Positions 4,447-64,000 are shown, numbered from the stretch's first letter. The stretch: 64,000 bases of DNA from Dehalococcoidia bacterium (GCA_040877915.1 JBBDNA010000012.1:41102-105101); one strand, 5' to 3'. Made by a program: numbers and translations. The notes: generated by a model not told the origin, from the sequence alone.

Positions 4447-4998
4447 ATGAGCCGCAACTCATACGATCTCGCTGCCGCAGTTCTGTCGTGCCTCGCCGCA
4501 TCGCTCCTGGTTGGAGCGTGTGCTGGCCAGAGCCCAGGCGCTTCGACCCCCACCGGCGCACCTAACCGAGCGAGGGTCAGCGACGAGAGCGACGGCCTCC
4601 GGTTGGTTCTGCAACTGCCAGCTCGCGTCAGCGCGGGCGAACCGGCTTCGGCCACAGTCGAGCTCATCAATGAAAGAGACAAACCAGCACGTGTAACAGG
4701 AACTTCCTGCACCCCCGAGTTCGGGTTCTGGATCACGGACAATCAACAGGAAGAGGCGGTATTCAGCTGGGTTGAGTATTGGGCGGAGACTGTACTCGGT
4801 CCTGGTGAACACTTCTGTTCTGACGAAGCGCATTTCATTGACCCTGGCCAGTCGATCGCGAACAACATCACCTTTGTATTGCCGAATGCTGGCGGCTTCG
4901 ATGTCTTCGCGACCATCGAACTGACTGAAGGCGCCAGCTTGACTCTGGGCACGCCCATCCCACTGGAAGTACGCTCCACGCTTAACGCACGCGAGTAA
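4447..4998 (+). CDS. hypothetical lipoprotein
   Basis: Signal peptide with a lipobox-like LLVGAC, then a beta-rich domain. LRLVLQLPARVSAGEPASATVELINERDKPARV recalls Ig-like/BsuPI-type folds (unverified). GC is lower than the flanks. Confidence 0.6.
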   Translation: MSRNSYDLAAAVLSCLAASLLVGACAGQSPGASTPTGAPNRARVSDESDGLRLVLQLPARVSAGEPASATVELINERDKPARVTGTSCTPEFGFWITDNQQEEAVFSWVEYWAETVLGPGEHFCSDEAHFIDPGQSIANNITFVLPNAGGFDVFATIELTEGASLTLGTPIPLEVRSTLNARE

Positions 4999-5074
4999 AC
5001 CACGAGCCGCCAACTCCTTGGCCTCTAGGCCTTGGTCTGCTTTCGCGAGAATTAGGCGCTGGCCAAATAAAGGG

Positions 5075-5103
5075 TTGACAAGCGGTCACCCTCGGACTAT
5101 TCT
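5075..5103 (+). promoter_or_regulatory. sigma70-like promoter for the 5146-5984 gene pair
   Basis: TTGACA (5075-5080), a 17-nt spacer, TATTCT (5098-5103). Confidence 0.55.
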
Positions 5104-5145
5104 CTACCCGCTGCAAGCGAAGGACACCGTTCCTTCGGGGGTCCA

Positions 5146-5460
5146 ATGCCAGATATCGGTTCTCTCACAACTTTCTCGGGCCTCATGGCCTTCTTCGGAA
5201 CGCTATGTCTCCTGTCCCGGCAGTTTACTGGAGCCGGACTTCTCCTTCTTATCTCTGGCGCCGCCGGCACCGGCATATTCTGGGACCGCTGGTCCGAGCG
5301 TGCGGGCGATCAAGTCCACGTGACGGCGCTTTTCGCCGGTCATCCGCCGTCGCCTGACGAGACGGCGATGCTGGCTACTCACCTGCCCTTGCTAATTCTC
5401 GGCGGCTCGCTGGTGGTGGCCGTCGCCTGGCGGAACTACAGGCAAGGTGCGACGAAATGA
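5146..5460 (+). CDS. small membrane protein (about 3 TM), hypothetical
   Basis: 104 aa with hydrophobic segments LMAFFGTLCLL, LLLLISGAAGTGIF and LPLLILGGSLVVAVAW. Its stop overlaps the next start (ATGA at 5457-5460). Confidence 0.5.
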   Translation: MPDIGSLTTFSGLMAFFGTLCLLSRQFTGAGLLLLISGAAGTGIFWDRWSERAGDQVHVTALFAGHPPSPDETAMLATHLPLLILGGSLVVAVAWRNYRQGATK

Positions 5461-5984
5461 GGTCACGTGCTGGCAAGACGATGCGGGCCGTCGTCTCCCT
5501 TGCGGTGGCTTCGACCGTGGCCTTCCTCGTCGGGACGCCGGGCACAGGCGGCGGAGGGGGTGACATACCCCACATCGCGTTTTCAGGAACGAGGGCGATG
5601 CAGACCTTTGCGAACGAGGTCGACTTCTTTGCCTATCAGAACGTCGAGTACATTGGCCAGACAACCACTGGTATCTACATCGACAGGACCCGAATGCACC
5701 TGAATGTCTACTGGCAGGATCCCGGCAGTCTCGTATGTACGGGGAACCCCGTGGATCCCCCACGCCCATCGGATGGTGCAAACTGGGGTTATCGTGATTT
5801 AAGCAACAATCCCGTAACGAAGTACAACTCGCCACGGTTCGTGTCGGTGTACTGGCAGTCGCACTTCGACAAGACCGAGGGACAAACTACGGTGGCTGGT
5901 ACTCCCGCCACGCGGCCGCCGATGCGCTCGAATACAATGGGTTTGGCCTCGGGCCAACCTGCCTTCCAACGTTCGGTGGGCTGA
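5457..5984 (+). CDS. secreted hypothetical protein
   Basis: Signal-like N terminus MRAVVSLAVASTVAFLVG followed by a Gly run. I recognise no motif. Translationally coupled to 5146-5460. Confidence 0.5.
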   Translation: MRSRAGKTMRAVVSLAVASTVAFLVGTPGTGGGGGDIPHIAFSGTRAMQTFANEVDFFAYQNVEYIGQTTTGIYIDRTRMHLNVYWQDPGSLVCTGNPVDPPRPSDGANWGYRDLSNNPVTKYNSPRFVSVYWQSHFDKTEGQTTVAGTPATRPPMRSNTMGLASGQPAFQRSVG

Positions 5985-6103
5985 ACCCGTTTGTGCCGCG
6001 GATAGGTTCGCTTGCCTCCCTCGGTCTGACCGGCGAGCTAGCTTGGTCTCATGATTTCTGCGTACGTGCCGAACTGCCGTTCGGCTGTCACTAAGGCGGA
6101 CCC

Positions 6104-7363
6104 GTGAGCAGGTCACGAAAGGCGTTGATAGCAGTATTGGGAATAGTCGCAGCCTTTGCGCTCGCCGCATTCACTCAGGCGGCGATGGGCGGTGGCTTGG
6201 TCTCGAGGGTTATTTGGCCCGATGACGAACAGAGCCCCGCTCATACGGTTTCCGTGGATCAGACGGTGACCTCCGGCCCGCTTACAATTAGACTGACCGA
6301 GGTGGATCTCTCGGCGACCCGTACACGTGCGTCCCTGGAGATCTCGAACGCTAACCTTCCCGATGCCAAGCAGCGCTCGGTCATGTTGCACCAACATCTC
6401 ATAAGGGTCGATGGGGTCGAGAGCAGGGGGGATGATCTGGTCATCTCTTATCGCATGGCAGACGCCGACACGGTGCTGTATACACTCGAATTCGGGCCGG
6501 CGTCCAGTCCCAACACGCCCATCACGATCACGATCGATAAGATATGGGCTCTTGAGAGCGAGTCGTCGGGATCGTATGTTGATGGCCCATGGGTCTTCCA
6601 ACTGACGCCCGGCGGCGCTGCCGTGGATCCGCTGGCTCGAGTCATCGAGGTTGATCGCTCGAAGTCCGCTGACCAGAAGACAATATTCTTCGATCAAGTT
6701 CGTACGTCGTCCGACGAAGTAATCGTTGCTTATAACTTCTCTTCGCCCGAGAACCTGTTGGGGCCAGCCAGCGCCCCTGCTCTAATGGTTTTCCCCGACG
6801 GTTCGTTTGCGCCTGGGCTGCCGCTAAACCGCGCTCCTGATGACACCGGCAGTCTGCTCCTATCGTTTCCACCCCTCCCCAACGGGGCCACGACATTCGA
6901 GATCCGCTTCGGGCCCTACCTCACGGACACGCCTGGCTCTTACACATTTGAAATCGATCTACCGCCCACGGTCAGGTCGGCGGATCCTTCTGAAGAGGCC
7001 ACGTTGATCGTTGGCCAACAGTTCGAGATCCGGAACGAAAGTGTGGAGGTAAGCGACATTCGCATTGAACCGGATGGCTTCACGCTGCGATTCGCGCCCC
7101 CGTCAGGCACCTCAGTGGAATATGCCGGAATGTCCCAAGCTGACAACATCTACGCGGTAGACGACCTAGGGAACACGTACTTCCCGGAGATCGTCGAGGG
7201 TGGCTTCGGTAAGGACGACCAGGGCAACGTGTTTTTCAGGGAAGACGTAGTACGCTTCGCGCCGGCTCTCGATCCCCAGGCGGAGAGCCTGAAGGTGCGG
7301 GTGTCCAGTTTCGCGGCACTCGACTACGGGCCCTGGGACTTCCAGGTTTCAGTCGCGGAGTGA
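6104..7363 (+). CDS. membrane-anchored/secreted hypothetical protein
   Basis: GTG start. N-terminal anchor ALIAVLGIVAAFALAAF. Segments such as GPLTIRLTEVDLSATRTRASLEIS and VEVSDIRIEPDGFTLRFAP recall extracytoplasmic domains of anti-sigma-type proteins (DUF4179-like, unverified). No sigma factor gene is adjacent. Confidence 0.6.
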   Translation: MSRSRKALIAVLGIVAAFALAAFTQAAMGGGLVSRVIWPDDEQSPAHTVSVDQTVTSGPLTIRLTEVDLSATRTRASLEISNANLPDAKQRSVMLHQHLIRVDGVESRGDDLVISYRMADADTVLYTLEFGPASSPNTPITITIDKIWALESESSGSYVDGPWVFQLTPGGAAVDPLARVIEVDRSKSADQKTIFFDQVRTSSDEVIVAYNFSSPENLLGPASAPALMVFPDGSFAPGLPLNRAPDDTGSLLLSFPPLPNGATTFEIRFGPYLTDTPGSYTFEIDLPPTVRSADPSEEATLIVGQQFEIRNESVEVSDIRIEPDGFTLRFAPPSGTSVEYAGMSQADNIYAVDDLGNTYFPEIVEGGFGKDDQGNVFFREDVVRFAPALDPQAESLKVRVSSFAALDYGPWDFQVSVAE

Positions 7364-9441: not shown

Positions 9442-10716
9442 ATGAGTATCACCTGGGAGATCAGCGAGCTCGATAACGGGCTGCGCATCGTCACCACGCC
9501 CGTGCCTACGGCGCAGTCGGTGAGCGTGAACCTGTTCGTGGGCGCGGGATCGCGCGGCGAGGACGAGCGCACCAAGGGGCTGGCCCACTTCCTGGAGCAC
9601 ATGGTGTTCAAGGGCACCGAGAAGCGCCCCACGGCCATCGACATCGCCGAGGCGATCGAGGGCGCCGGCGGCGTCCTCAACGCCTACACGTCGAAGGAGA
9701 TGACCTGCTACTGGAACCAGGTCCCGTTCGACCGGCTGGAGCTGGCCGTGGACGTCGTGACCGATATGCTGATGAACCCCCTGCTCGACCAGGAAGAGGT
9801 CGACCGCGAGCGCTCGGTGGTGCAGCAGGAGATCCGTCGCGGCAAGGACCAGCCGGGGGCCTGGTGCGGCGAGCTCCTGGGCCAGGCGATGTTCGGCGAC
9901 CAGCCGCTGGGCTGGTCGACCGCGGGGACGGAGGAGACCGTCCAGGAGCTGCAGCGCGGCGACTTCGCGGCCTGGATGGACACCTGGTACGCACCCCGGA
10001 ACATGGTGCTGGCCGTGGCCGGCAACGCCTCCCACAAGGACGTCGTCGCGCTGGCCGAGGCCTGTGTCGCCAACGGCAACCGCGCGGCGGCGCCGGACGT
10101 CCTCCCGGTCAACGGCAACCTGCCCGCCCAGCGGGTGATCTCCGAGAGCCGGCCGATCGCACAGGCCAACCTGGCCCTCAGCGTGCCCGGCCTCCAGCGC
10201 GACGACCCCGACCGCTACGTGTTGCAGGTCCTGAATTCGGTGATGGGTCGCGGCATGAGCTCGCGGCTGTTCAAGGAAGTGCGCGAGAGGCGCGGGCTGG
10301 CCTACTCGGTATCGTCGTCGGTCAGCCGGCACAAGGACATCGGGGCGTTCACGGTGACGGCCGGCGTGTCGCCGGAGAAGCTGGACGAGGCGATCACGGT
10401 GATCCTCGAGGAGCTGGCAAAGCCCACCGAGGAGCCGGTGCCCGCCGAGGAGATGACCAAGGCCAAAGACTACACCGTCGGCAGCTTCCGCCTCAGCCTG
10501 GAGACGCCCATGGCGCTGGGCCAGCGCACGGGCGAGCAGCTCCTCACGATGGGCGAGATCGAGCCGATCGAGACGGTCGTCGAGAGCGTGCAGTCGGTGA
10601 CGGCGGACGATGTGATGCGCCTGGCGCGGCGGATACTGGTCCCGGAGAAGGTGGCGCTATCGGTCGTCGGGCCCGAAATCGACGAAGGTCGCCTGCGCGG
10701 GCTGCTGGCGGCCTGA
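9442..10716 (+). CDS. M16 family zinc peptidase (insulinase/pitrilysin-like)
   Basis: Inverted zinc motif HFLEH in GLAHFLEHMVFKGT. The length and two-domain layout are typical of M16B. Confidence 0.9.
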   Translation: MSITWEISELDNGLRIVTTPVPTAQSVSVNLFVGAGSRGEDERTKGLAHFLEHMVFKGTEKRPTAIDIAEAIEGAGGVLNAYTSKEMTCYWNQVPFDRLELAVDVVTDMLMNPLLDQEEVDRERSVVQQEIRRGKDQPGAWCGELLGQAMFGDQPLGWSTAGTEETVQELQRGDFAAWMDTWYAPRNMVLAVAGNASHKDVVALAEACVANGNRAAAPDVLPVNGNLPAQRVISESRPIAQANLALSVPGLQRDDPDRYVLQVLNSVMGRGMSSRLFKEVRERRGLAYSVSSSVSRHKDIGAFTVTAGVSPEKLDEAITVILEELAKPTEEPVPAEEMTKAKDYTVGSFRLSLETPMALGQRTGEQLLTMGEIEPIETVVESVQSVTADDVMRLARRILVPEKVALSVVGPEIDEGRLRGLLAA

Positions 10717-30561: not shown

Positions 30562-30880
30562 CCACGTATTCCTACGTGCGGTGTAGCGCAGCCTCGTAGG
30601 TTGGGGGCTTCAGGCCCCAACTTGCGGGGGTCTTGAGACCCCCGCCTACGTTGCCGGGAGACAGGTGTAGGGGCGCAGCGAGCAGCGCCCCTACAATCGT
30701 GGATCCGCGGGCGGGCGACCCGAAGGTCGCCCTTACGTGGGTCTGGGACGCCCCCTAAGGGGCCGCTAGCCCCCGATGCTTGGCTCGGGAGGGCGCAGCG
30801 AGCAGCGCCCCTACAATCGTGGATCTGCGGGCGGCCTACCTCTAGTGCCTGCCCTGAGCCTGTCGAAGGGTCGCCCTTAC
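30562..30880. repeat. dense cluster of GC-rich hairpins including a 43-nt direct repeat (REP/BIME-like)
   Basis: Hairpins CACGTA..TACGTG, GGGGGTC-ttga-GACCCCC, GTAGGGGCGC-agcgagca-GCGCCCCTAC (30667-30694) and GGGCGACC-cgaa-GGTCGCCC. The 43-nt direct repeat GGCGCAGCGAGCAGCGCCCCTACAATCGTGGATC(C/T)GCGGGCGG sits at 30672-30714 and 30792-30834. CCTGAGCCTGTCGAAGGG at 30853 recurs at 59560. Confidence 0.8.
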
Positions 30881-57064: not shown

Positions 57065-57294
57065 GGGGCGATCCCGCAGCTAGTCCCAGGCGTATTCATT
57101 AGCGGGCCACAGCCCGTCTGTGGTCGCTTCGGCTGCGTGCCTGATTGGAGGTTAAGCTGAAGTATAGATGTAGTCGATATGAGTGGCCGAAAAACGCACC
57201 AAATTCTTCTCATTAACGTCTTCCCAACCTAGAGGCCCAATGGTAGTATGTAGTTGCAGCTATCGGAAAACCAGAATCCTGCTGCTCCATTAAG

Positions 57295-57615
57295 ATGACT
57301 ATAGAAAACCACTGGTATCTCGTTTCCAGCCACGGCGCCATCCTCTTCTACGTCGCCGTCAACCCCGACTGCACGATCAAGGACATCGCCAATGCGATGT
57401 CGCTTACGCGTCGCACCGTCTGGGGAGTCATCGGCGACCTGCGGCGGGCCGGCATGCTTCACATACGCAAAGAAGGCCGGCGGCATCACTACACCGTGAA
57501 CCTGGACGCGCCGTTCAAGCACCCGGTGATCAACGGCTTCAAGCTCCGCGTGATCCTGGGCGAGCTGGTGAACGACCTGCGGCGCGAGCCGGTCGGCGCT
57601 CAGCGCTCGGCTTAG
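57295..57615 (+). CDS. winged helix-turn-helix (MarR/ArsR-like) DNA-binding protein
   Basis: TIKDIANAMSLTRRTVWGVIGDLRRAGMLHIRKEGRRHHYTV is a typical wHTH. An AT-rich gap precedes it. Confidence 0.65.
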   Translation: MTIENHWYLVSSHGAILFYVAVNPDCTIKDIANAMSLTRRTVWGVIGDLRRAGMLHIRKEGRRHHYTVNLDAPFKHPVINGFKLRVILGELVNDLRREPVGAQRSA

Positions 57616-57644
57616 ACGCGTCCCCCTCCCTGGCCGGTCCTCCG

Positions 57645-57674
57645 TTGACACTGAATCCGCGCGTGTGCTAGCAT
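57645..57674 (+). promoter_or_regulatory. promoter feeding the SAM riboswitch
   Basis: TTGACA (57645-57650), an 18-nt spacer, TAGCAT (57669-57674), about 20 nt upstream of the aptamer. Confidence 0.45.
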
Positions 57675-57696
57675 CCCATTCACAATTGAATAGGCT

Positions 57697-57812
57697 CTCT
57701 TATCCAGAGAGGTGGAGGGTACGGCCCTGTGAAGCCCGGCAACCGGCTCCCGCCCCAGGCGGGGGCAGCGGTGCCAAAGCCGACCCCGATGGCGATCGGG
57801 GCACGATAAGGG
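57697..57812 (+). promoter_or_regulatory. SAM-I (S-box) riboswitch aptamer
   Basis: CTCTTATCCAGAGAGGTGGAGGGTACGGCCCTGTGAAGCCCGGCAACC...GGTGCCAAAGCC...GATAAGGGG matches the S-box consensus. P1 pairs CUCUUAUC with GAUAAGGG. Confidence 0.9.
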
Positions 57813-57822
57813 GATTTAGGTG

Positions 57823-57857
57823 GCCTCTTCTCCGAAAGACGAAGGGGCTTTTCTTTT
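57823..57857 (+). terminator. riboswitch expression-platform terminator
   Basis: GCCTCTTC...GAAGGGGC stem followed by TTTTCTTTT. The 3' P1 strand AAGGGG can alternatively pair with CCTCTT (anti-terminator), which implies an OFF switch. Confidence 0.65.
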
Positions 57858-58014
57858 GCACACCATGTCCAGGCACGACACGAAAGCGCGACACCCGGCG
57901 GCCTCGCTCACAGCGGCGGGGACGATGGCGATGCCCCGGGCCTCCACCCCCGAACAGCCGGGGAGTGGGAGGCCCAGCGCGGCCAGGAGCTAGCAGCCGG
58001 AGGTATCGCAAGCC

Positions 58015-59265
58015 ATGTCGTTCGCCAGGAACCTTAGATGTAGAGAGTGCGGCCGGGTCTACCCCACCGACCCGATGCACGTGTGCGAGTTCTGCTTCGG
58101 CCCGCTGGAGATGTTCTACGATTACGACGCGCTGCGGCGGACGCTGACCCGTGAACGAATCGAGCGGGGTCCGCCCACGATGTGGCGCTACGCCGACCTC
58201 CTCCCCGCCGACGCCGATTCCGCCGTGGACATCGGCACGGGGATGACGCCTCTGTTGCGGGCGTCGCGCCTGGGCCGCGAGCTGGGGCTGGAGCGGCTAT
58301 ACGTCAAGAACGACTGCCAGAACCCGACCTGGTCGTTCAAGGACCGCGTCGTCTCGGTGGCCGTGACAAAGGCTCGCGAGTTCGAGTACGACACGCTGGC
58401 CTGCGCCTCCACCGGCAACCTGGCCAACAGCGTGGCCGCCCACGCCGCGCGCGCGGGGATGAAGGCCATGGTGTTCATCCCGGCCGATCTCGAAGTCGGC
58501 AAGATCGTCGGCTCCGCCGTCTACGGTCCCACCCTCGTCGCCGTCGACGGCAGCTACGACGAGGTAAACCGCCTGTGCAGCGAGCTGTCCGACAAGTACC
58601 CCTGGGCGTTCGTCAACATCAACATGCGGCCCTACTACGCGGAGGGCAGCAAGACCCTGGCCTTCGAGGTCTGCGAGCAGCTGGGCTGGCAGGCGCCCGA
58701 CCACTGCCTGGTGCCCCTGGCCAGCGGCTCTCTGTACACCAAGATCTACAAGGGGCTGAAGGAGCTGGCCTGGCTCGGCCTCGTCGAATGGCGCGCGACG
58801 CGGATGAGCGGGGCGCAGGCGCTGGGCTGCTCGCCCATCGTCGAGGCCTGGGAGCGGCAGAGCTTCGACATCAAGCCGCAGAAGCCCAGCACCATCGCCA
58901 AGTCGCTGGCCATCGGCAACCCCGCCGACGGCTACTACGCCCTCAAGATCATGTCGCAGTCGGGCGGCCACGGCGTGGCCGTGACCGACGACGAAGTCGT
59001 CGAGGGGATAAAGTTGCTGGCCCAGACCGAAGGGATCTTCGCGGAGACGGCCGGGGGCGTCGTCGTCGCCGGGCTGAAGCGGCTTGCCAGGCAGGGTAAA
59101 ATCGGGCCGGAGGAGCTGGTGGTGGCGTTCATCACGGGCGCCGGGCTGAAGACTCAGGAGGCGGTGGCCCCGGCCCTGGAGCCCTCGCTCTCCGTTCAGC
59201 CCACCATGGCGTCGTTTGAGGACGCCCTGAGCGAGCGCACCGGCGCGCTGCCGGCCACGAAGTAG
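58015..59265 (+). CDS. threonine-synthase-like PLP enzyme with an N-terminal zinc ribbon (candidate homocysteine synthase)
   Basis: CRECGRVYPTDPMHVCEFCFGPLE ribbon and the PLP Lys in NPTWSFKDR. 416 aa. Lies under the SAM-I riboswitch. Confidence 0.88.
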   Translation: MSFARNLRCRECGRVYPTDPMHVCEFCFGPLEMFYDYDALRRTLTRERIERGPPTMWRYADLLPADADSAVDIGTGMTPLLRASRLGRELGLERLYVKNDCQNPTWSFKDRVVSVAVTKAREFEYDTLACASTGNLANSVAAHAARAGMKAMVFIPADLEVGKIVGSAVYGPTLVAVDGSYDEVNRLCSELSDKYPWAFVNINMRPYYAEGSKTLAFEVCEQLGWQAPDHCLVPLASGSLYTKIYKGLKELAWLGLVEWRATRMSGAQALGCSPIVEAWERQSFDIKPQKPSTIAKSLAIGNPADGYYALKIMSQSGGHGVAVTDDEVVEGIKLLAQTEGIFAETAGGVVVAGLKRLARQGKIGPEELVVAFITGAGLKTQEAVAPALEPSLSVQPTMASFEDALSERTGALPATK

Positions 59266-59278
59266 AATCAGGAGACAC

Positions 59279-59521
59279 ATGGCGAAGCAACGAATGAAGT
59301 TCACCTTTCCCACGGAGCTGATCAAGGAGCCCGTGATCTGGCGCCTGGGCCGCGACTTCGAACTGGTCACCAACATCCGCCGCGCCGACGTGACGGACGA
59401 CCGCGGCTGGGTGGTGCTGGAGCTGGACGGCGAGATGGACGAGATCGAGCGTGGGGTGCGCTGGGTGGTGGACCAGGGCGTGCGCGTCGACCCCGTGGCC
59501 GGCGACATCGTGGAGGGATGA
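59279..59521 (+). CDS. stand-alone NIL domain protein
   Basis: 80 aa. FTFPTELIKEPVIWRLGRDFELVTNIRRADVTDDRGWVVLELDG...GVRV follows the NIL (MetN C-terminal) pattern. Confidence 0.7.
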   Translation: MAKQRMKFTFPTELIKEPVIWRLGRDFELVTNIRRADVTDDRGWVVLELDGEMDEIERGVRWVVDQGVRVDPVAGDIVEG

Positions 59522-59551
59522 GCGTGGATCGAAAGCGTGCCGGACCCAGAA

Positions 59552-59584
59552 CCGTTCGTCCTGAGCCTGTCGAAGGGCGGACGG
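59552..59584 (+). repeat. REP-like hairpin between the NIL and MoaD-like genes
   Basis: CCGTTCGTCC, a 13-nt loop (TGAGCCTGTCGAA), GGGCGGACGG (10 bp including 2 G-U pairs). The loop and core recur at 30853. Confidence 0.55.
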
Positions 59585-59612
59585 CCCCGCTAGGCGGGAG
59601 CGAGGCTGCATC

Positions 59613-59888
59613 ATGACCGTGAACGTTAGAATACCGACGCCGCTGCGCAAGCTGACCAACGAGCAGGACATCGTCAGCGGCGACGGCGGGACCCTGAAAG
59701 CCTGTATCGAGTCGCTCGACTCGCAGTTCCCGGGGCTCAAGGAGCGTCTGTGCGACGACGACGGCGAGCTGCGGCGGTTCGTCAACGTCTACGTCAACGG
59801 CGAGGACGTCCGCTTCATGTCCGGCCTGGCCACGGCCCTCAGCGCCGGCGACGAGGTGAGCATCGTGCCGGCGGTGGCCGGGGGGTAG
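59613..59888 (+). CDS. MoaD/ThiS-family ubiquitin-like sulfur carrier protein
   Basis: 91 aa ending ...DEVSIVPAVAGG (C-terminal Gly-Gly). Confidence 0.85.
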   Translation: MTVNVRIPTPLRKLTNEQDIVSGDGGTLKACIESLDSQFPGLKERLCDDDGELRRFVNVYVNGEDVRFMSGLATALSAGDEVSIVPAVAGG

Positions 59889-59913
59889 CGGCGCTTCTAT
59901 CAAGCGGCGGGCT

Positions 59914-59941
59914 GTGGGTTCGATCCCCGTCTCTCGCTCCA
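59914..59941 (+). other. tRNA 3' fragment (T-arm, acceptor 3' strand and CCA), not a complete tRNA
   Basis: GTGGG-TTCGATC-CCCGT then CTCTCGC-T-CCA. No complementary 5' acceptor strand (GCGAGAG) and no canonical anticodon arm lie upstream. The MoaD-like CDS ends at 59888. Confidence 0.45.
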
Positions 59942-60193
59942 GTTACGAATACGGTTAGCCGGGCTTGACGCGAACGCCAGCGACCGGTAACGTGACGCGT
60001 GATGATCTCCTTTGGTCACGCGCAAGGAGCCGTAGGCATCGCCGCGAGCGTATCGCGGCGTTCTTGGTGCGCGCCCTGAGGGATCAAGCCGCTAGCTACT
60101 GAACGATTTGCTCCCGCGGGCGCTGAGCCGGCGGGAGTCTTCTTTGGGACCTCCTTTCCGGCTCAACGCGGGAGCGCCAGAGGGAGGCTCGAA

Positions 60194-61270
60194 GTGCGAT
60201 CCAACACCCCACTCAGACTCGGTTTCTTCATCCAGCCTGTCCACCCCCCGTCGCGGAGTTACCGCGACGTCTTGCGAGAGGACAGGGAGGCTATCATCCT
60301 GGCGGATCGGCTGGGCTACGCGGAAGCTTTCGTTGGAGAGCATCTCACGGACTCTGCCGAGCCGATCACCTCAAGCCTGGCCTTCATCGCGAGCGTTGCG
60401 GATCAATGCGCATCGCTCACTCTTGGAACTGGAGTCCTGAGTTTTCTCAACCACCATCCTGTGGCCGTAGCGGCTCAGACGGCGATGATCGACCACCTGC
60501 TCGACGGCCGCTTTCTGCTCGGTGTCGGCGCGGGCGTCCCATCAGACGCGGAGGCGTTGGGGAACCTGGGGGCCGATCGGGACGGCAGGCTCTTGGAGGG
60601 CATCGACCAGGTCATCGCGCTGTGGTCGGAGGAGCCGCCGTACGACCTGGAGGGCAAGTTCAATCGGATCACAACGGCGTCGACGCTGACGCGCGAGATA
60701 GGCCAGGGCATTATCGTCAGGCCACTACAGCAACCCCATCCGCCAATACTGCTCTCGTGTATCCGTCCCAACTCGCGATGGCCCGGCCTGGCCGGTCGCC
60801 GCGGTTGGGCCGGGATCTCGGCGAGCTACATCCCCCTCGAGGCCGTGGGCGCACACGTCAACGCGTATATTCAAGGCAGGGAAGCCTCTGGATTCAGTGC
60901 CGATGCCGCAAGCTGGCGTGTCGCCCGAAGCATCTTCGTCGCCGATGACGAAGCGACAGCGGTGTCCTACGCGACTACGGAGAGTGGGCCACACGCCTTC
61001 TATTTCTTCAACGTCATGACAAAGTTCGCCCCTTCATCTCAGCACGCGACGCTGGTCCCGCCAACCACGGGCATCAGCGACCTGCTTCGGCAGCGGGTCA
61101 TAGCGGGGACAGTCGATCAGGTCGTCGAGCAGATCCTCCATCTCCGAAACACGGTAGGGCCTTTCGGAACACTCCTCTACACCGGCCATGACTGGATGGA
61201 CCCTCCTCTGGCGCGACGCTCCATGGAACTGATGGCGAGGGAGGTGATGCCTCAAGTGAACGCATTGTAA
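60194..61270 (+). CDS. LLM-class (luciferase-like) flavin-dependent monooxygenase
   Basis: LRLGFFIQPVHPP...ADRLGYAEAFVGEHLT N terminus, typical of the LimB-like LLM group. GTG 6 nt after GAGGGAGG. GC is visibly lower. Confidence 0.88.
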   Translation: MRSNTPLRLGFFIQPVHPPSRSYRDVLREDREAIILADRLGYAEAFVGEHLTDSAEPITSSLAFIASVADQCASLTLGTGVLSFLNHHPVAVAAQTAMIDHLLDGRFLLGVGAGVPSDAEALGNLGADRDGRLLEGIDQVIALWSEEPPYDLEGKFNRITTASTLTREIGQGIIVRPLQQPHPPILLSCIRPNSRWPGLAGRRGWAGISASYIPLEAVGAHVNAYIQGREASGFSADAASWRVARSIFVADDEATAVSYATTESGPHAFYFFNVMTKFAPSSQHATLVPPTTGISDLLRQRVIAGTVDQVVEQILHLRNTVGPFGTLLYTGHDWMDPPLARRSMELMAREVMPQVNAL

Positions 61271-61412
61271 GCGAGGCGGAGTTGTTCGACACCGACTTCC
61301 TCGTCGCGCAGCTCCAGATCGGACTTGGCCTGCCTGACTGACATTTCCATCGCGTGCACGGAATTCACGCGCCCTTCGCTTGACCCCCTCATCGCCTGCC
61401 CCCTAACGTAAG

Positions 61413-61852: not shown

Positions 61853-63670
61853 ATGCAGGTACAGGACAAGCCAGGCAAGACGCATCGATCTCACCCTTCG
61901 GTGCCGGCCGACCTCAAGCCGGGCCGCGTGTTCGTCACGCTCGACGAGGAGATCGACAACTTCGAGCGGGAGACGCGCCGCTACCGCTCGGACGAGGACG
62001 GCCTGCTCGACGAGTTCCGCCCCTTCCGCCTGATGCACGGCGTCTACGGCCAGCGGCAGGAGAACACCCAGATGATCCGCGTCAAGCTGCCCTACGGCGG
62101 CGTGTCCGCGGACCAGATGGACGCCTGCGCCGTCTTCGCCGAGAAGTACTCCGGCTATCGCCGCGGCCACATCACCACCCGCGAGAACTTCCAGTTCCAC
62201 TTCGTGCCCCTGGACGACGTGCCGGACGTCATGCGCCTCCTGGCCAGCGCCGGCCTGACGACGCGCGAGGCCTGCGGCAACACCGTCCGCAACATCACCG
62301 GCTGCCCCTACGCCGGGACTTGCGCCGACGAGGTGTTCGACGCCACGCCCTACCTCGTCGCCTACGGCCGGACGATGCTGCGCAACCCGATCTGCCAGCG
62401 CCTGCCCCGCAAGTGGAAGACGGCGTTCTCCAGCTGCGCCAGCGACTGCGCTGGCACGCCCTTCCACGACATGGGGTACATATCGAAGGTCAAGGTGGTG
62501 AACGGCCGCGAGGTCCGCGGCTTCGAGCTGCGCGTCGGCGGCGGACTCTCGACGATGCCCCGCCAGGCCGACACCATCTACGACTTCGTCCCCGTGGAGA
62601 ACGGCGAGTACATCCGCGTCACCGAGGCCATGCTCCGCGTCTTCGACAAGGAGGGCGGCCTGACCAACTTCCTGCGCAAGAACATGGCCAAGGCGCGGGT
62701 GAAGTTCCTGATCAAAGAGATCGGCATCGACGAGTTCCGGCGGCAGGTGGAGGAGGAGCTGGCCTACCCCTGGGCCAGGGAGCCGCTGGACATGGAGGCG
62801 CTGATACAGCTGGCGCCGGAGGGCCCTACCGCCGGCGAGCCGCCGAAGAACGGCCAGCCCGCCCCCGGCTTCGAACGCTGGCTCCAGACCAACCTCCGGC
62901 CCCAGAAGCAGGAGGGCTACGTGGCCGCCACGGTGACGGTGCCCATGGGCAACCTCTCGCCGGAGCAGTTCCGCGGCCTCGCCGACGTCATGCGCCGGTT
63001 CAGTGGCGGCACCGCCCGCACCCAGCAGAACCAGAATCTGGTGCTGCGCTGGGTGCGCGAGGACGCTCTCCCCGCGCTCCACGGCGCCCTCGTCGACCTG
63101 GAGCTGGGCGATCCCGAGGCCGGCCTCATCGCCGACCCTGTGGCCTGCCCCGGCACGGACAGCTGCAAGATGGGCATCACCTCGTCCCAGGGCATGGGTT
63201 ACGCCATTCGCGACGCCATCCTCGAGATGGGCATCGACGACCCGCTGGTCCAGGAGATGACGATAAAGGCCAGCGGCTGCCCCAACGGCTGCGCTCAGCA
63301 CCACCTCGCGGGCATCGGCCTGCAGGGGTCGTCGTTCAAGGCGGGAATGACCGCTATCCCCTGCTACGACGTGTTTCTGGGCGGCGGCAACTACATCGGC
63401 GGCGGCAAGTACGGCACCCGCGTGGCCCGCGTGCCGGCCAAGAAGGTGCCGGACGCCATCAAGAAGCTCATCTCCGTCTACCAGGCCGAGCGCAACGACG
63501 GCGAACCGTTCATCGAGTTCGTGGACCGGCGAGGCCCGAAGTCCTTCGACGAGATGCTCAACGAGTTCAAGGAAGTGGGCTCCGTGAGCGAGGAGATCGA
63601 CACCTACTTCGACTGGGGCAAGGAAGAGCTGTTCGAGGTTATCCGCGGCGAGGGCGAGTGCGCCCTGTAG
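61853..63670 (+). CDS. ferredoxin-type sulfite (or nitrite) reductase hemoprotein
   Basis: Siroheme/4Fe-4S Cys motifs CPGTDSCKMGI and SGCPNGCAQH, with the duplicated NIR_SIR layout. Confidence 0.92.
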   Translation: MQVQDKPGKTHRSHPSVPADLKPGRVFVTLDEEIDNFERETRRYRSDEDGLLDEFRPFRLMHGVYGQRQENTQMIRVKLPYGGVSADQMDACAVFAEKYSGYRRGHITTRENFQFHFVPLDDVPDVMRLLASAGLTTREACGNTVRNITGCPYAGTCADEVFDATPYLVAYGRTMLRNPICQRLPRKWKTAFSSCASDCAGTPFHDMGYISKVKVVNGREVRGFELRVGGGLSTMPRQADTIYDFVPVENGEYIRVTEAMLRVFDKEGGLTNFLRKNMAKARVKFLIKEIGIDEFRRQVEEELAYPWAREPLDMEALIQLAPEGPTAGEPPKNGQPAPGFERWLQTNLRPQKQEGYVAATVTVPMGNLSPEQFRGLADVMRRFSGGTARTQQNQNLVLRWVREDALPALHGALVDLELGDPEAGLIADPVACPGTDSCKMGITSSQGMGYAIRDAILEMGIDDPLVQEMTIKASGCPNGCAQHHLAGIGLQGSSFKAGMTAIPCYDVFLGGGNYIGGGKYGTRVARVPAKKVPDAIKKLISVYQAERNDGEPFIEFVDRRGPKSFDEMLNEFKEVGSVSEEIDTYFDWGKEELFEVIRGEGECAL

Positions 63671-63707: not shown

Positions 63708-64000
63708 GTGACAAGCGAGGTAAAACCGGCGGCGTTCAGCCCCGATAAGCTGGAGTCGCTCAACAAGGAGCTGGCGGGCAAGCCGGCGGAGGAGATCATC
63801 CGCTGGGCGGCCGGCACGTTCGGCTCCGACATCACGCTGGCCAGCAGCTTCGGGGCCGAGGACGTCGTCGTCATCGACATGATCGCCAGGGTCGCGCCGG
63901 AGATCCCGGTGTTCACCCTGGACACCGGCCGCCTCCACCAGGAGACATACGACGTCATGGAGAGCGTCCGCGTGAAGTACGACCTGCCGATCGTCAGCAT
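63708..64000 (+). CDS. cysH: phosphoadenosine/adenosine phosphosulfate reductase (5' part, runs off the window)
   Basis: Absent from the ORF track because it has no stop. GTG at 63708 follows GAAGGAGGG. Translation VTSEVKPAAFSPDKLESLNKELAGKPAEEIIRWAAGTFGSDITLASSFGAEDVVVIDMI...FTLDTGRLHQETYDVM matches the CysH N-terminal region. Confidence 0.88.
   Translation, partial: MTSEVKPAAFSPDKLESLNKELAGKPAEEIIRWAAGTFGSDITLASSFGAEDVVVIDMIARVAPEIPVFTLDTGRLHQETYDVMESVRVKYDLPIVS

Follow-up and report, generated by a model that had tools for sequence, protein, structure and literature searches.

The 64-kb window analysed here (the whole stretch of 64,000 nucleotides (nt) from a Dehalococcoidia bacterium, GCA_040877915.1 JBBDNA010000012.1:41102-105101, numbered from its first letter) contains at positions 57645-59888 of the + strand a putative operon in which an S-adenosylmethionine (SAM) riboswitch of the SAM-I (S-box) type precedes genes for a threonine-synthase-like (ThrC-like) enzyme, a small protein made of a single NIL domain, and a carrier protein that ends in two glycines. 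The enzyme and the carrier resemble MetM and MetO of the MetM/MetO pathway for homocysteine synthesis described in Streptomyces, and are referred to below as MetM-like and MetO-like; the part that the NIL protein might play between them is the main subject of this report. The functional statements on all three proteins are drawn from homology and gene context. The features of the operon region are as follows.

57645-57674, + strand: promoter-like site
57697-57812, + strand: SAM-I (S-box) riboswitch aptamer
57823-57857, + strand: predicted expression platform, a terminator-like hairpin followed by a U-run
58015-59265, + strand: MetM-like pyridoxal-phosphate (PLP) enzyme of the ThrC family, 416 amino acids (aa)
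59279-59521, + strand: stand-alone NIL protein, 80 aa, with no cysteine
59522-59612, + strand: spacer of 91 bp between the NIL and MetO-like genes
59613-59888, + strand: MetO-like carrier of the MoaD/ThiS type, 91 aa

The leader, the enzyme and the carrier

A first-pass annotation, made from the sequence alone, had recognised in the leader a near-consensus SAM-I aptamer with a terminator/anti-terminator platform, and both parts of that description hold. The aptamer scores 75.5 bits against Rfam family RF00162 (gathering score 44.4; E = 6.5e-16) in a match that spans the full model (positions 1-108 of 108), and no other Rfam family attains its gathering score within the window. The promoter-like site, located 23 nt 5' of the aptamer, consists of TTGACA, 18 nt and TAGCAT with an extended TG; it is a pattern match only (10 of 12 positions in a consensus scan), and is the sole + strand match within 57200-60300. 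The hairpin (57823-57848) lies 10 nt 3' of the aptamer and is predicted by RNAfold to have a 10-bp stem, with an energy of about -15.9 kcal/mol when the flanks are included; the U-run that follows is UUUUCUUUU (57849-57857). When the nascent transcript is folded in silico with RNA only up to the hairpin loop, the 5' arm of the hairpin pairs with G-rich aptamer sequence, a predicted alternative pairing of aptamer and terminator of the kind typical of riboswitches that turn transcription off.

For comparison with other genomes we used the best 80 of 493 species genomes matched by one NIL peptide pattern. This sample represents the closest relatives of the query rather than a random set, is biased to Chloroflexota (almost all of its members), and its gene calls are our own annotation from open reading frames (ORFs) and BLAST rather than curated models. 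One locus, L002, is a contig syntenic with the window that was used for the downstream context, and its NIL protein is 95% identical to that of the window. Homologous aptamers were detected by nhmmer 5' of the MetM-like gene in 29 of 82 related loci, with Rfam confirming those at L002 and L003. No SAM aptamer was found among the 82 at the loci in which a cysteine desulfurase gene of the IscS type is involved (see below), nor at several of the others. The riboswitch is thus missing from many loci that have NIL, and riboswitch and NIL are therefore independent additions. Just 5' of the riboswitch promoter and on the same strand there is a gene for a 106-aa winged-helix protein (MarR/ArsR-like; 57295-57615), which has a counterpart at the corresponding place in 18 of the 80 related loci and is a possible further regulator of the operon.

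The MetM-like gene encodes a ThrC-like PLP enzyme of fold type II, with the zinc ribbon and SFKDR lysine recognised at first pass. The match to the PALP domain (1.5e-73) covers aa 74-375, the NinF-type zinc ribbon occupies aa 8-32 with four cysteines (C9/C12/C24/C27), and the PLP (Schiff-base) lysine is K109, within SFKDR. All three ORFs of the operon are preceded by good Shine-Dalgarno sequences, and searches with hidden Markov models of the enzyme, NIL and ThiS/MoaD families confirm every domain assignment. Solved threonine synthases match the window enzyme with 178-217 bits only, in alignments that begin at residue 53-57, and therefore have no zinc ribbon. They also differ in three motifs of the active-site region. 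Around the PLP lysine the window enzyme has NPTWSFKDRVV where the solved enzymes have NPTGSFKDRGM; the second motif is NINMRPYYAEGSKT in the window and N-SVNPYRIEGQKT in the solved enzymes, and the third is PLASGS and PVGNAGN respectively. A tblastn search found no second ThrC-like gene within the window.

A parallel outside the Chloroflexota and Thermodesulfobacteriota considered here is in the chromosome of Nonomuraea gerenzanensis (filed as a plasmid), which was recovered by tblastn of a plasmid collection. At this locus a match to RF00162 (68.7 bits) is followed by a zinc-ribbon ThrC-like gene and, after 25 nt, by a gene for a 91-aa carrier. The two enzymes share 53% identity in a full-length alignment of 403 aa, and the Nonomuraea enzyme also departs from ThrC around the PLP lysine (NPTHSFKDRVV, likewise without the ThrC Gly and GM), with the window forms of the second and third motifs nearly unchanged. 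More broadly, full-length comparison of MetM-like proteins from Chloroflexota, Thermodesulfobacteriota and Nonomuraea gives mutual identities of 49-60%. The window carrier, described at first pass as a ubiquitin-fold protein ending in GG, matches ThiS PF02597 (2.1e-19) and is 54% identical over all 91 aa to the carrier linked to MetM in Nonomuraea; both end in AVAGG.

Because the enzyme and carrier are 53% and 54% identical to a riboswitch-linked Nonomuraea pair with the layout reported for Streptomyces albulus, the operon is of a known kind: its core of riboswitch, MetM and MetO has precedent, and the NIL gene is the new part. Judged by these sequence relationships, it is very likely that the window operon is a MetM/MetO operon. 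The earlier proposal that it makes homocysteine from a protein thiocarboxylate gains support from the identities to the Nonomuraea pair and from the clade-specific motifs, the chemistry being that expected of the family.

The NIL protein and its gene neighbourhoods

The NIL protein matches PF09383 with 47.9 bits (1.3e-12; cut-off 24), and the Pfam search finds no second domain, in agreement with its first-pass description as a NIL-only protein; an AGGAG Shine-Dalgarno sequence precedes its ATG. An identical protein is known from an NCBI metagenome-assembled genome of an uncultured Dehalococcoidia bacterium. Cysteine is absent both from the window protein and from 78 close homologues, and occurs at most twice per column in an alignment of 43 diverse NIL homologues. 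As no cysteine is conserved, covalent sulfur transfer by NIL is very unlikely.

An AlphaFold2 (AF2) model of the protein (predicted local distance difference test score, pLDDT, 90.1) has the order beta-alpha-beta-beta-alpha-beta, and its best match in the PDB is the C2 domain of the methionine importer subunit MetN (3dhw_C; template modelling (TM) score 0.82, root-mean-square deviation 1.6 A). All 11 significant PDB matches are NIL (C2) domains of MetN-type ABC ATPases, mostly MetN itself, and the remoter structural matches are to the ACT, NikR and PII regulatory domains; the modelled structure thus points to a ligand-binding domain. The NIL family profile matches the isolated MetN C2 domain (E = 1e-10), and the profile alignment places the conserved NIL strand TNIRRA on MetN NNNIISA. 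Within it the sequence of structure 6CVL, which carries N295A, departs from wild-type MetN exactly at the column of window residue N32. N32 falls in the column of MetN N295 and is 86% conserved among the 43 homologues, and A36, in the column of A299, is 95% conserved. In MetN, the N295A substitution abolishes L-methionine binding, and bound methionine forms a hydrogen bond with N295 from the opposite subunit; A299 is part of the strand through which the two C2 domains of the dimer pair (PMC6233128).

The NIL family comprises 882 representatives at 50% clustering (E <= 0.001). Among them are tandem NIL-NIL proteins, which fit a dimeric unit, and a JAMM-NIL fusion; GNAT-NIL and GFO_IDH-NIL proteins also occur. 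A PALP-NIL fusion (P0141) and a chimeric protein (P0219) were discarded as evidence, their linkers resembling read-through or assembly artefacts.

The gene neighbourhoods show a consistent association with MetM. A MetM-like gene lies directly 5' of NIL in 76 of the 80 genomes, one further locus being cut by a contig end, and the gap between the two has a median of 14 nt and is 60 nt or less in 59 of the 76. MetO-like genes are found within 2 kb 3' of NIL at 62 of the 80 loci, at a distance whose median is about 48 nt and which exceeds 300 nt in 11 of the 62, and in 13 of the 15 loci without MetO within 2 kb the NIL gene stays tight against MetM. The closer linkage of NIL is thus with the enzyme, the looser one with the carrier. 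The co-occurrence of NIL genes with ThrC-like/MoaD-like pairs, proposed as a test at first pass, is clearly seen both in this adjacency (76/80) and in fusions of carrier and NIL in another phylum. The first-pass view of NIL as a third component of the system is strengthened by the same adjacency and fusions; of the two roles then suggested for it, sulfur transfer and Met/SAM sensing, the former is disfavoured by the absence of a conserved cysteine.

A search with one of the carrier-NIL fusions yielded a family of 558 carrier-GG-NIL proteins, 170-179 aa in length, from metagenome-assembled genomes (MAGs) that carry the label Deltaproteobacteria or Thermodesulfobacteriota. The carrier terminus PAIAGG is invariant among 51 aligned fusions, and is followed by a linker of about 6 residues and then by the first NIL strand. 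Four fusion loci were read, which derive from three proteins and show three different gene contexts; in them the fusion gene directly follows a zinc-ribbon MetM-like gene and is succeeded by genes for a ThiF+rhodanese protein (MoeZ-like), a JAMM protease and a CysM-like enzyme. In the AF2 model of one fusion both domains are well folded, but the predicted TM score is 0.48 and the pLDDT falls below 50 at the AGG junction (residues 87-92), as would be expected for an exposed cleavage site; there is no confident packing of NIL on the carrier in this model, which neither supports nor excludes direct contact. The carboxylate of GG must be free for adenylation, and the fusions are therefore presumably precursors cut by the neighbouring JAMM enzyme. 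A similar arrangement is seen in the ThiF-type activating enzymes (E1) encoded at L002 (17502-18611) and L003 (10538-11629), where an N-terminal MoaD-like domain ending in PAIAGG is fused to the adenylyltransferase, which would likewise imply JAMM processing.

Downstream of the operon, the window contains two genes of sulfate assimilation that had been recognised at first pass, the second of them incomplete.

61853-63670, + strand: sulfite/nitrite-reductase hemoprotein (assimilatory), with NIR_SIR and NIR_SIR_ferr domains; syntenic in 17 of 80 loci
63708-64000, + strand: 5' part of the phosphoadenylylsulfate/adenylylsulfate (PAPS/APS) reductase gene cysH, running off the window end; 91% identity to the PAPS_reduct protein of L002 by tblastn

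Searches by tblastn with reference proteins found no E1, JAMM, rhodanese, CysM-like or IscS gene within the window, the first three of which had also been reported missing at first pass. The probable reason is that the window ends before the region that holds them in L002. L002 is syntenic with the window from YchF to cysH and continues past cysH with genes for ATP sulfurylase, a permease, Rrf2, a CysM-like protein, a MoaD-ThiF E1, a second GG carrier and a rhodanese, so that in L002 the E1, rhodanese and CysM-like genes lie 6-9 kb downstream (the E1 and rhodanese 7-9 kb), beyond the point at which the window ends. Other relatives have the order MetM-NIL-MetO-E1-CysM-like-JAMM without gaps. 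With the CysM-like, E1 and JAMM genes beside MetM, NIL and MetO in these relatives, protein thiocarboxylates apparently serve both cysteine and homocysteine synthesis in these organisms.

The window differs from L002 by two insertions near the carrier gene. The 91-bp spacer between NIL and MetO is, by blastn, an insertion that is absent from L002, and does not count among the functional elements of the operon. It carries the motif CCTGAGCCTGTCGAAGGG (plus CGTGGATC), and CCTGAGCCTGTCGAAGGG, for which the chance expectation is 0.00, recurs at 30851-30871; no Rfam family matches this repeated motif, which may be a small repeated element. A second insertion, of 1466 bp (59889-61354), separates MetO from the sulfite reductase gene and holds a luciferase-like monooxygenase gene (60194-61270; Bac_luciferase 2e-37) together with a terminator-like hairpin (60040-60060). 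At its edge, immediately after MetO, a segment resembling a tRNA T-arm and 3' end (GGGTTCGATCCCC...CTCCA; 59900-59945) was considered as a tRNA and rejected, since neither ARAGORN nor Rfam (E up to 1) finds one there.

Interpretation of the operon and alternatives

On balance we favour the view that this is a SAM-I-controlled MetM/MetO operon for homocysteine synthesis, in which NIL is a non-catalytic partner of MetM that senses a metabolite of the methionine family. The components of this view differ in strength. Given the conserved gene order and the fusions, it is very likely that NIL is a true functional partner in the operon; the more specific proposal, that NIL detects methionine or a closely related metabolite and exerts feedback on MetM or on its sulfur supply, is the simplest one to unite the findings, but is put forward tentatively, by analogy, and is slightly less likely than not. 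In the mechanism suggested by the sequence, abundant SAM would cause the aptamer to fold and the terminator to form, and transcription would stop. The GG terminus of MetO would be adenylated and thiocarboxylated by a ThiF-type E1 probably encoded just outside the window, which in relatives is fused to or beside a rhodanese, and MetM would, as its orthology indicates, exchange the phosphate of O-phosphohomoserine for the carrier sulfur to give homocysteine. NIL would then work with MetM as a dimeric ACT-like sensor of methionine or of a relative such as homocysteine, and would provide protein-level feedback on the flow of sulfur to homocysteine beside the RNA-level sensor of SAM. A precedent for such a pairing is the non-homologous archaeal homocysteine synthase L-ASST, in which methionine is the ligand of a NIL domain and SAM that of a CBS domain.

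Several observations weigh against this view. The case for sensing is built on two conserved residues and an analogy, and the conserved RR of TNIRRA and the flexible C-terminal tail GDIVEG (VDPVxGDIVEG) have no counterpart in MetN. Orthology to the S. albulus MetM is traced through the Nonomuraea homologue of the same architecture only, and the Nonomuraea locus itself, with its riboswitch, MetM and MetO, has no NIL gene, so that NIL is not needed everywhere. For a sensor, fusion to the C terminus of the carrier is at first sight unexpected. In 11 of the 80 loci, moreover, the gene directly 3' of NIL encodes an IscS-type cysteine desulfurase, which in the loci read abuts or overlaps the NIL stop codon, and in three of the 80 (L049, L054 and L060) NIL and IscS are found together without MetM nearby. 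This linkage to IscS is as compatible with a role in sulfur mobilisation as with the sensing of methionine. In the latter three loci NIL stands directly before IscS-IscU(-MnmA) or after CysK-CysE and is 69-70% identical to the window NIL; two of the three are labelled as Firmicutes or Desulfotomaculum MAGs.

A recurrent arrangement that includes IscS is the Dehalococcoidales-like architecture, in which CysK-CysE is followed by MetM-NIL-IscS and then by IscU and/or an AIR-synthase-related protein, the MetM-like protein being about 60% identical. It is found at L046, L065, L066, L074, L075 and L080-L084 (for example L081, 6726-10503). These loci have neither an adjoining MetO nor a SAM riboswitch, and the sulfur donor for MetM may be a different one in them.

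The most substantial alternative is that NIL is a docking or maturation accessory of the carrier with no part in metabolite sensing, which presents MetO to MetM, to the E1 or to the JAMM enzyme and which, in the fused form, acts as a C-terminal cap that is cut off at GG before the carrier is charged. The widespread carrier-GG-NIL fusions with their invariant GG and adjoining JAMM gene speak for it, as do the JAMM-NIL fusion, the exposed low-confidence AGG linker in the AF2 model, and the E1s of these lineages, which are likewise MoaD-GG-ThiF fusions; the conserved flexible tail GDIVEG might moreover insert into a partner. Against it, NIL stays tight to MetM in 13 of the 15 loci without a MetO within 2 kb, its spacing from MetO is loose (more than 300 nt in 11 of 62), and AF2 gives no confident packing of NIL on the carrier. 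The CysO-CysM and ThiS-ThiG pairs are not known to need an adaptor, and the accessory role leaves unexplained why the equivalents of the MetN methionine site are the best conserved. We consider this explanation rather unlikely. Less probable again, and in our view improbable, is a wider part for NIL in sulfur mobilisation, as a general regulator or partner of IscS or of sulfur trafficking at large rather than of MetM specifically. The IscS gene at or a few bases from the NIL stop codon in 11 of 80 loci, the three loci with NIL-IscS-IscU(-MnmA) or CysK-CysE-NIL-IscS and no MetM, and the 66-70% identity to the window NIL that is retained in IscS contexts speak for this explanation, but MetM is directly 5' of NIL in 76 of 80 loci, the fusion loci read always adjoin MetM and have no IscS, and NIL domains elsewhere are tied to methionine or homocysteine rather than to iron-sulfur assembly; the three exceptional genomes may also have MetM elsewhere.

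Two further explanations concern the identity of the enzyme and the chemistry of NIL. The ThrC-like gene could encode an ordinary threonine synthase with functionally unrelated neighbours. It is a further point against our view that the enzyme passes both NCBIfam threonine synthase equivalogs (NF006050, 307.2 bits against a cut-off of 303; TIGR00260, 283 bits against 167), and its best matches among solved structures are threonine synthases. It is nonetheless controlled by a SAM-I riboswitch and not by a threonine-responsive element, the arrangement of riboswitch, enzyme and carrier is kept in an actinomycete, the GG carrier and NIL are linked to the enzyme across three phyla, and its motifs differ from those of solved ThrCs. 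MetM is, furthermore, often misannotated as threonine synthase (GapMind 2026, bioRxiv 10.1101/2024.10.14.618325), and we regard an ordinary threonine synthase as very improbable here. Even harder to credit is a NIL that acts as a covalent sulfur relay in the manner of a TusA-like persulfide carrier: the position of its gene between those of the enzyme and the sulfur donor is suggestive of such a relay, but neither the window NIL nor any of its 78 close homologues has a cysteine.

If NIL is the methionine-family sensor that we favour, it could be regarded more generally as a portable methionine/homocysteine sensor that evolution has joined to three machines of unrelated origin: the importer MetN, the DUF39 homocysteine synthase and MetM/MetO. 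In the last of these it would be a free regulatory subunit of a PLP enzyme, with a JAMM-cleavable fusion to the carrier in some phyla; this generalisation is speculative, and we offer it as possible rather than probable. Were it true, the carrier-NIL fusion would be a bacterial counterpart of ubiquitin-fusion precursors that releases carrier and regulator in equal amounts, and the thiocarboxylate sulfur relay would be under two tiers of product feedback, by SAM at the RNA level and by methionine at the protein level. Taken together, the fusions of carrier-GG with NIL and with E1 suggest that in these lineages sulfur carriers are commonly released from polyproteins by proteolysis. The MetM/MetO pathway, as set out in the two published accounts considered here, consists of enzyme, carrier, E1 and protease, and NIL would be a fifth conserved player in at least two phyla. 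As NIL has a structural relative with a known ligand, an 80-aa ORF becomes a directly testable hypothesis.

There are also consequences for annotation. These genes currently carry names such as threonine synthase (MetM), SAMP1/MoaD (MetO), and 'ABC-type methionine transport system ATPase subunit' or 'FeS-binding protein' (NIL), and the window MetO scores above the cut-off of the archaeal SAMP1 equivalog NF041918 (69.6 bits against 60). With the genes misnamed, metabolic reconstructions of Dehalococcoidia, SAR202 and related uncultured Chloroflexota miss this methionine route, and these organisms may be wrongly called auxotrophs.

Comparison with known systems

In the CysO/CysM/Mec system of Mycobacterium tuberculosis and the HcyS/HcyD/HcyF/MetY system of Wolinella succinogenes a protein thiocarboxylate feeds a PLP enzyme. 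Both have an E1-type activator and a JAMM protein that trims or releases the carrier, and the carriers are made with C-terminal extensions. The enzyme in the window operon differs in being ThrC-like rather than CysM or MetY, and we know of no NIL component in either of these systems.

The closest relative is the MetM/MetO pathway of S. albulus, and the Streptomyces route named in the first-pass annotation is documented in two sources. One of these, citing Hasebe et al. 2024, names four components: MetO as carrier, Mec as hydrolase, MoeZ as ligase and MetM as the MetO-thiocarboxylate-dependent homocysteine synthase (GapMind 2026, bioRxiv 10.1101/2024.10.14.618325). The other reports a SAM riboswitch upstream of S. 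albulus metM and takes as a homologue of the encoded enzyme a cyanobacterial protein that shares 51.6% identity with it (PMC12172450). As these accounts describe it, the S. albulus system shares with the window operon a ThrC-like PLP enzyme followed by a GG-terminated carrier, with a SAM riboswitch upstream, and probably also a dependence on a ThiF/MoeZ-type E1 and a JAMM protein (Mec), genes for which lie near the cluster in relatives of the window. What sets the window operon apart from the S. albulus arrangement, so described, is the 80-aa NIL gene between enzyme and carrier, which neither account mentions and which in Thermodesulfobacteriota is fused to the carrier. The window operon differs also in its location in a sulfate-assimilation neighbourhood beside a CysO/CysM-like cluster, and only about one third of related loci have the riboswitch. 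Full-text literature searches for a link between NIL or PF09383 and MetM/MetO, threonine synthase or sulfur carriers returned nothing; the original paper by Hasebe et al., which lay outside these searches, may mention NIL.

The MetN C2 domain and the window NIL belong to the same Pfam family and have the same fold, with the equivalents of N295 and A299 kept. Unlike the C2 domain, the window NIL is free-standing, and it shares only 16-20% identity with it, has RR after Asn-Ile and carries an extra C-terminal tail; its partner is a biosynthetic enzyme and not a transporter.

The archaeal homocysteine synthase L-ASST offers a comparison in which a NIL module is again attached to a homocysteine-forming enzyme. 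This L-aspartate-semialdehyde sulfurtransferase consists of a small subunit, the NIL/ferredoxin protein MA1822, and the DUF39/COG1900 protein MA1821, and corresponds to the DUF39 pathway of Desulfovibrio; its NIL domain is described as methionine-binding and regulatory, and acts alongside a SAM-binding CBS domain (PMC12068725). Over its whole length the window NIL can be aligned with the NIL half of a NIL/ferredoxin protein of this type (28% identity, E = 2e-14), and it looks like the L-ASST NIL module without its ferredoxin. It differs from the L-ASST subunit in having neither a ferredoxin domain nor cysteines, and in its partner, a PLP enzyme acting on O-phosphohomoserine that is not homologous to DUF39. 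No DUF39 gene was found in the window or in 88 other loci with a stand-alone NIL or a carrier-NIL fusion; one is present only at L086, a single locus from a metagenome scan with a carrier-NIL fusion that was used as a control. There, the DUF39 and NIL/ferredoxin system (4706-6399) lies beside genes for a ThiF-like E1, Rrf2, CysK and CysE, and a thiamine pyrophosphate (TPP) riboswitch (10241-10345) precedes an unrelated membrane protein. A role established for NIL in the MetM/MetO operon would bear also on what the NIL domain does in the homocysteine pathway of archaea and Desulfovibrio.

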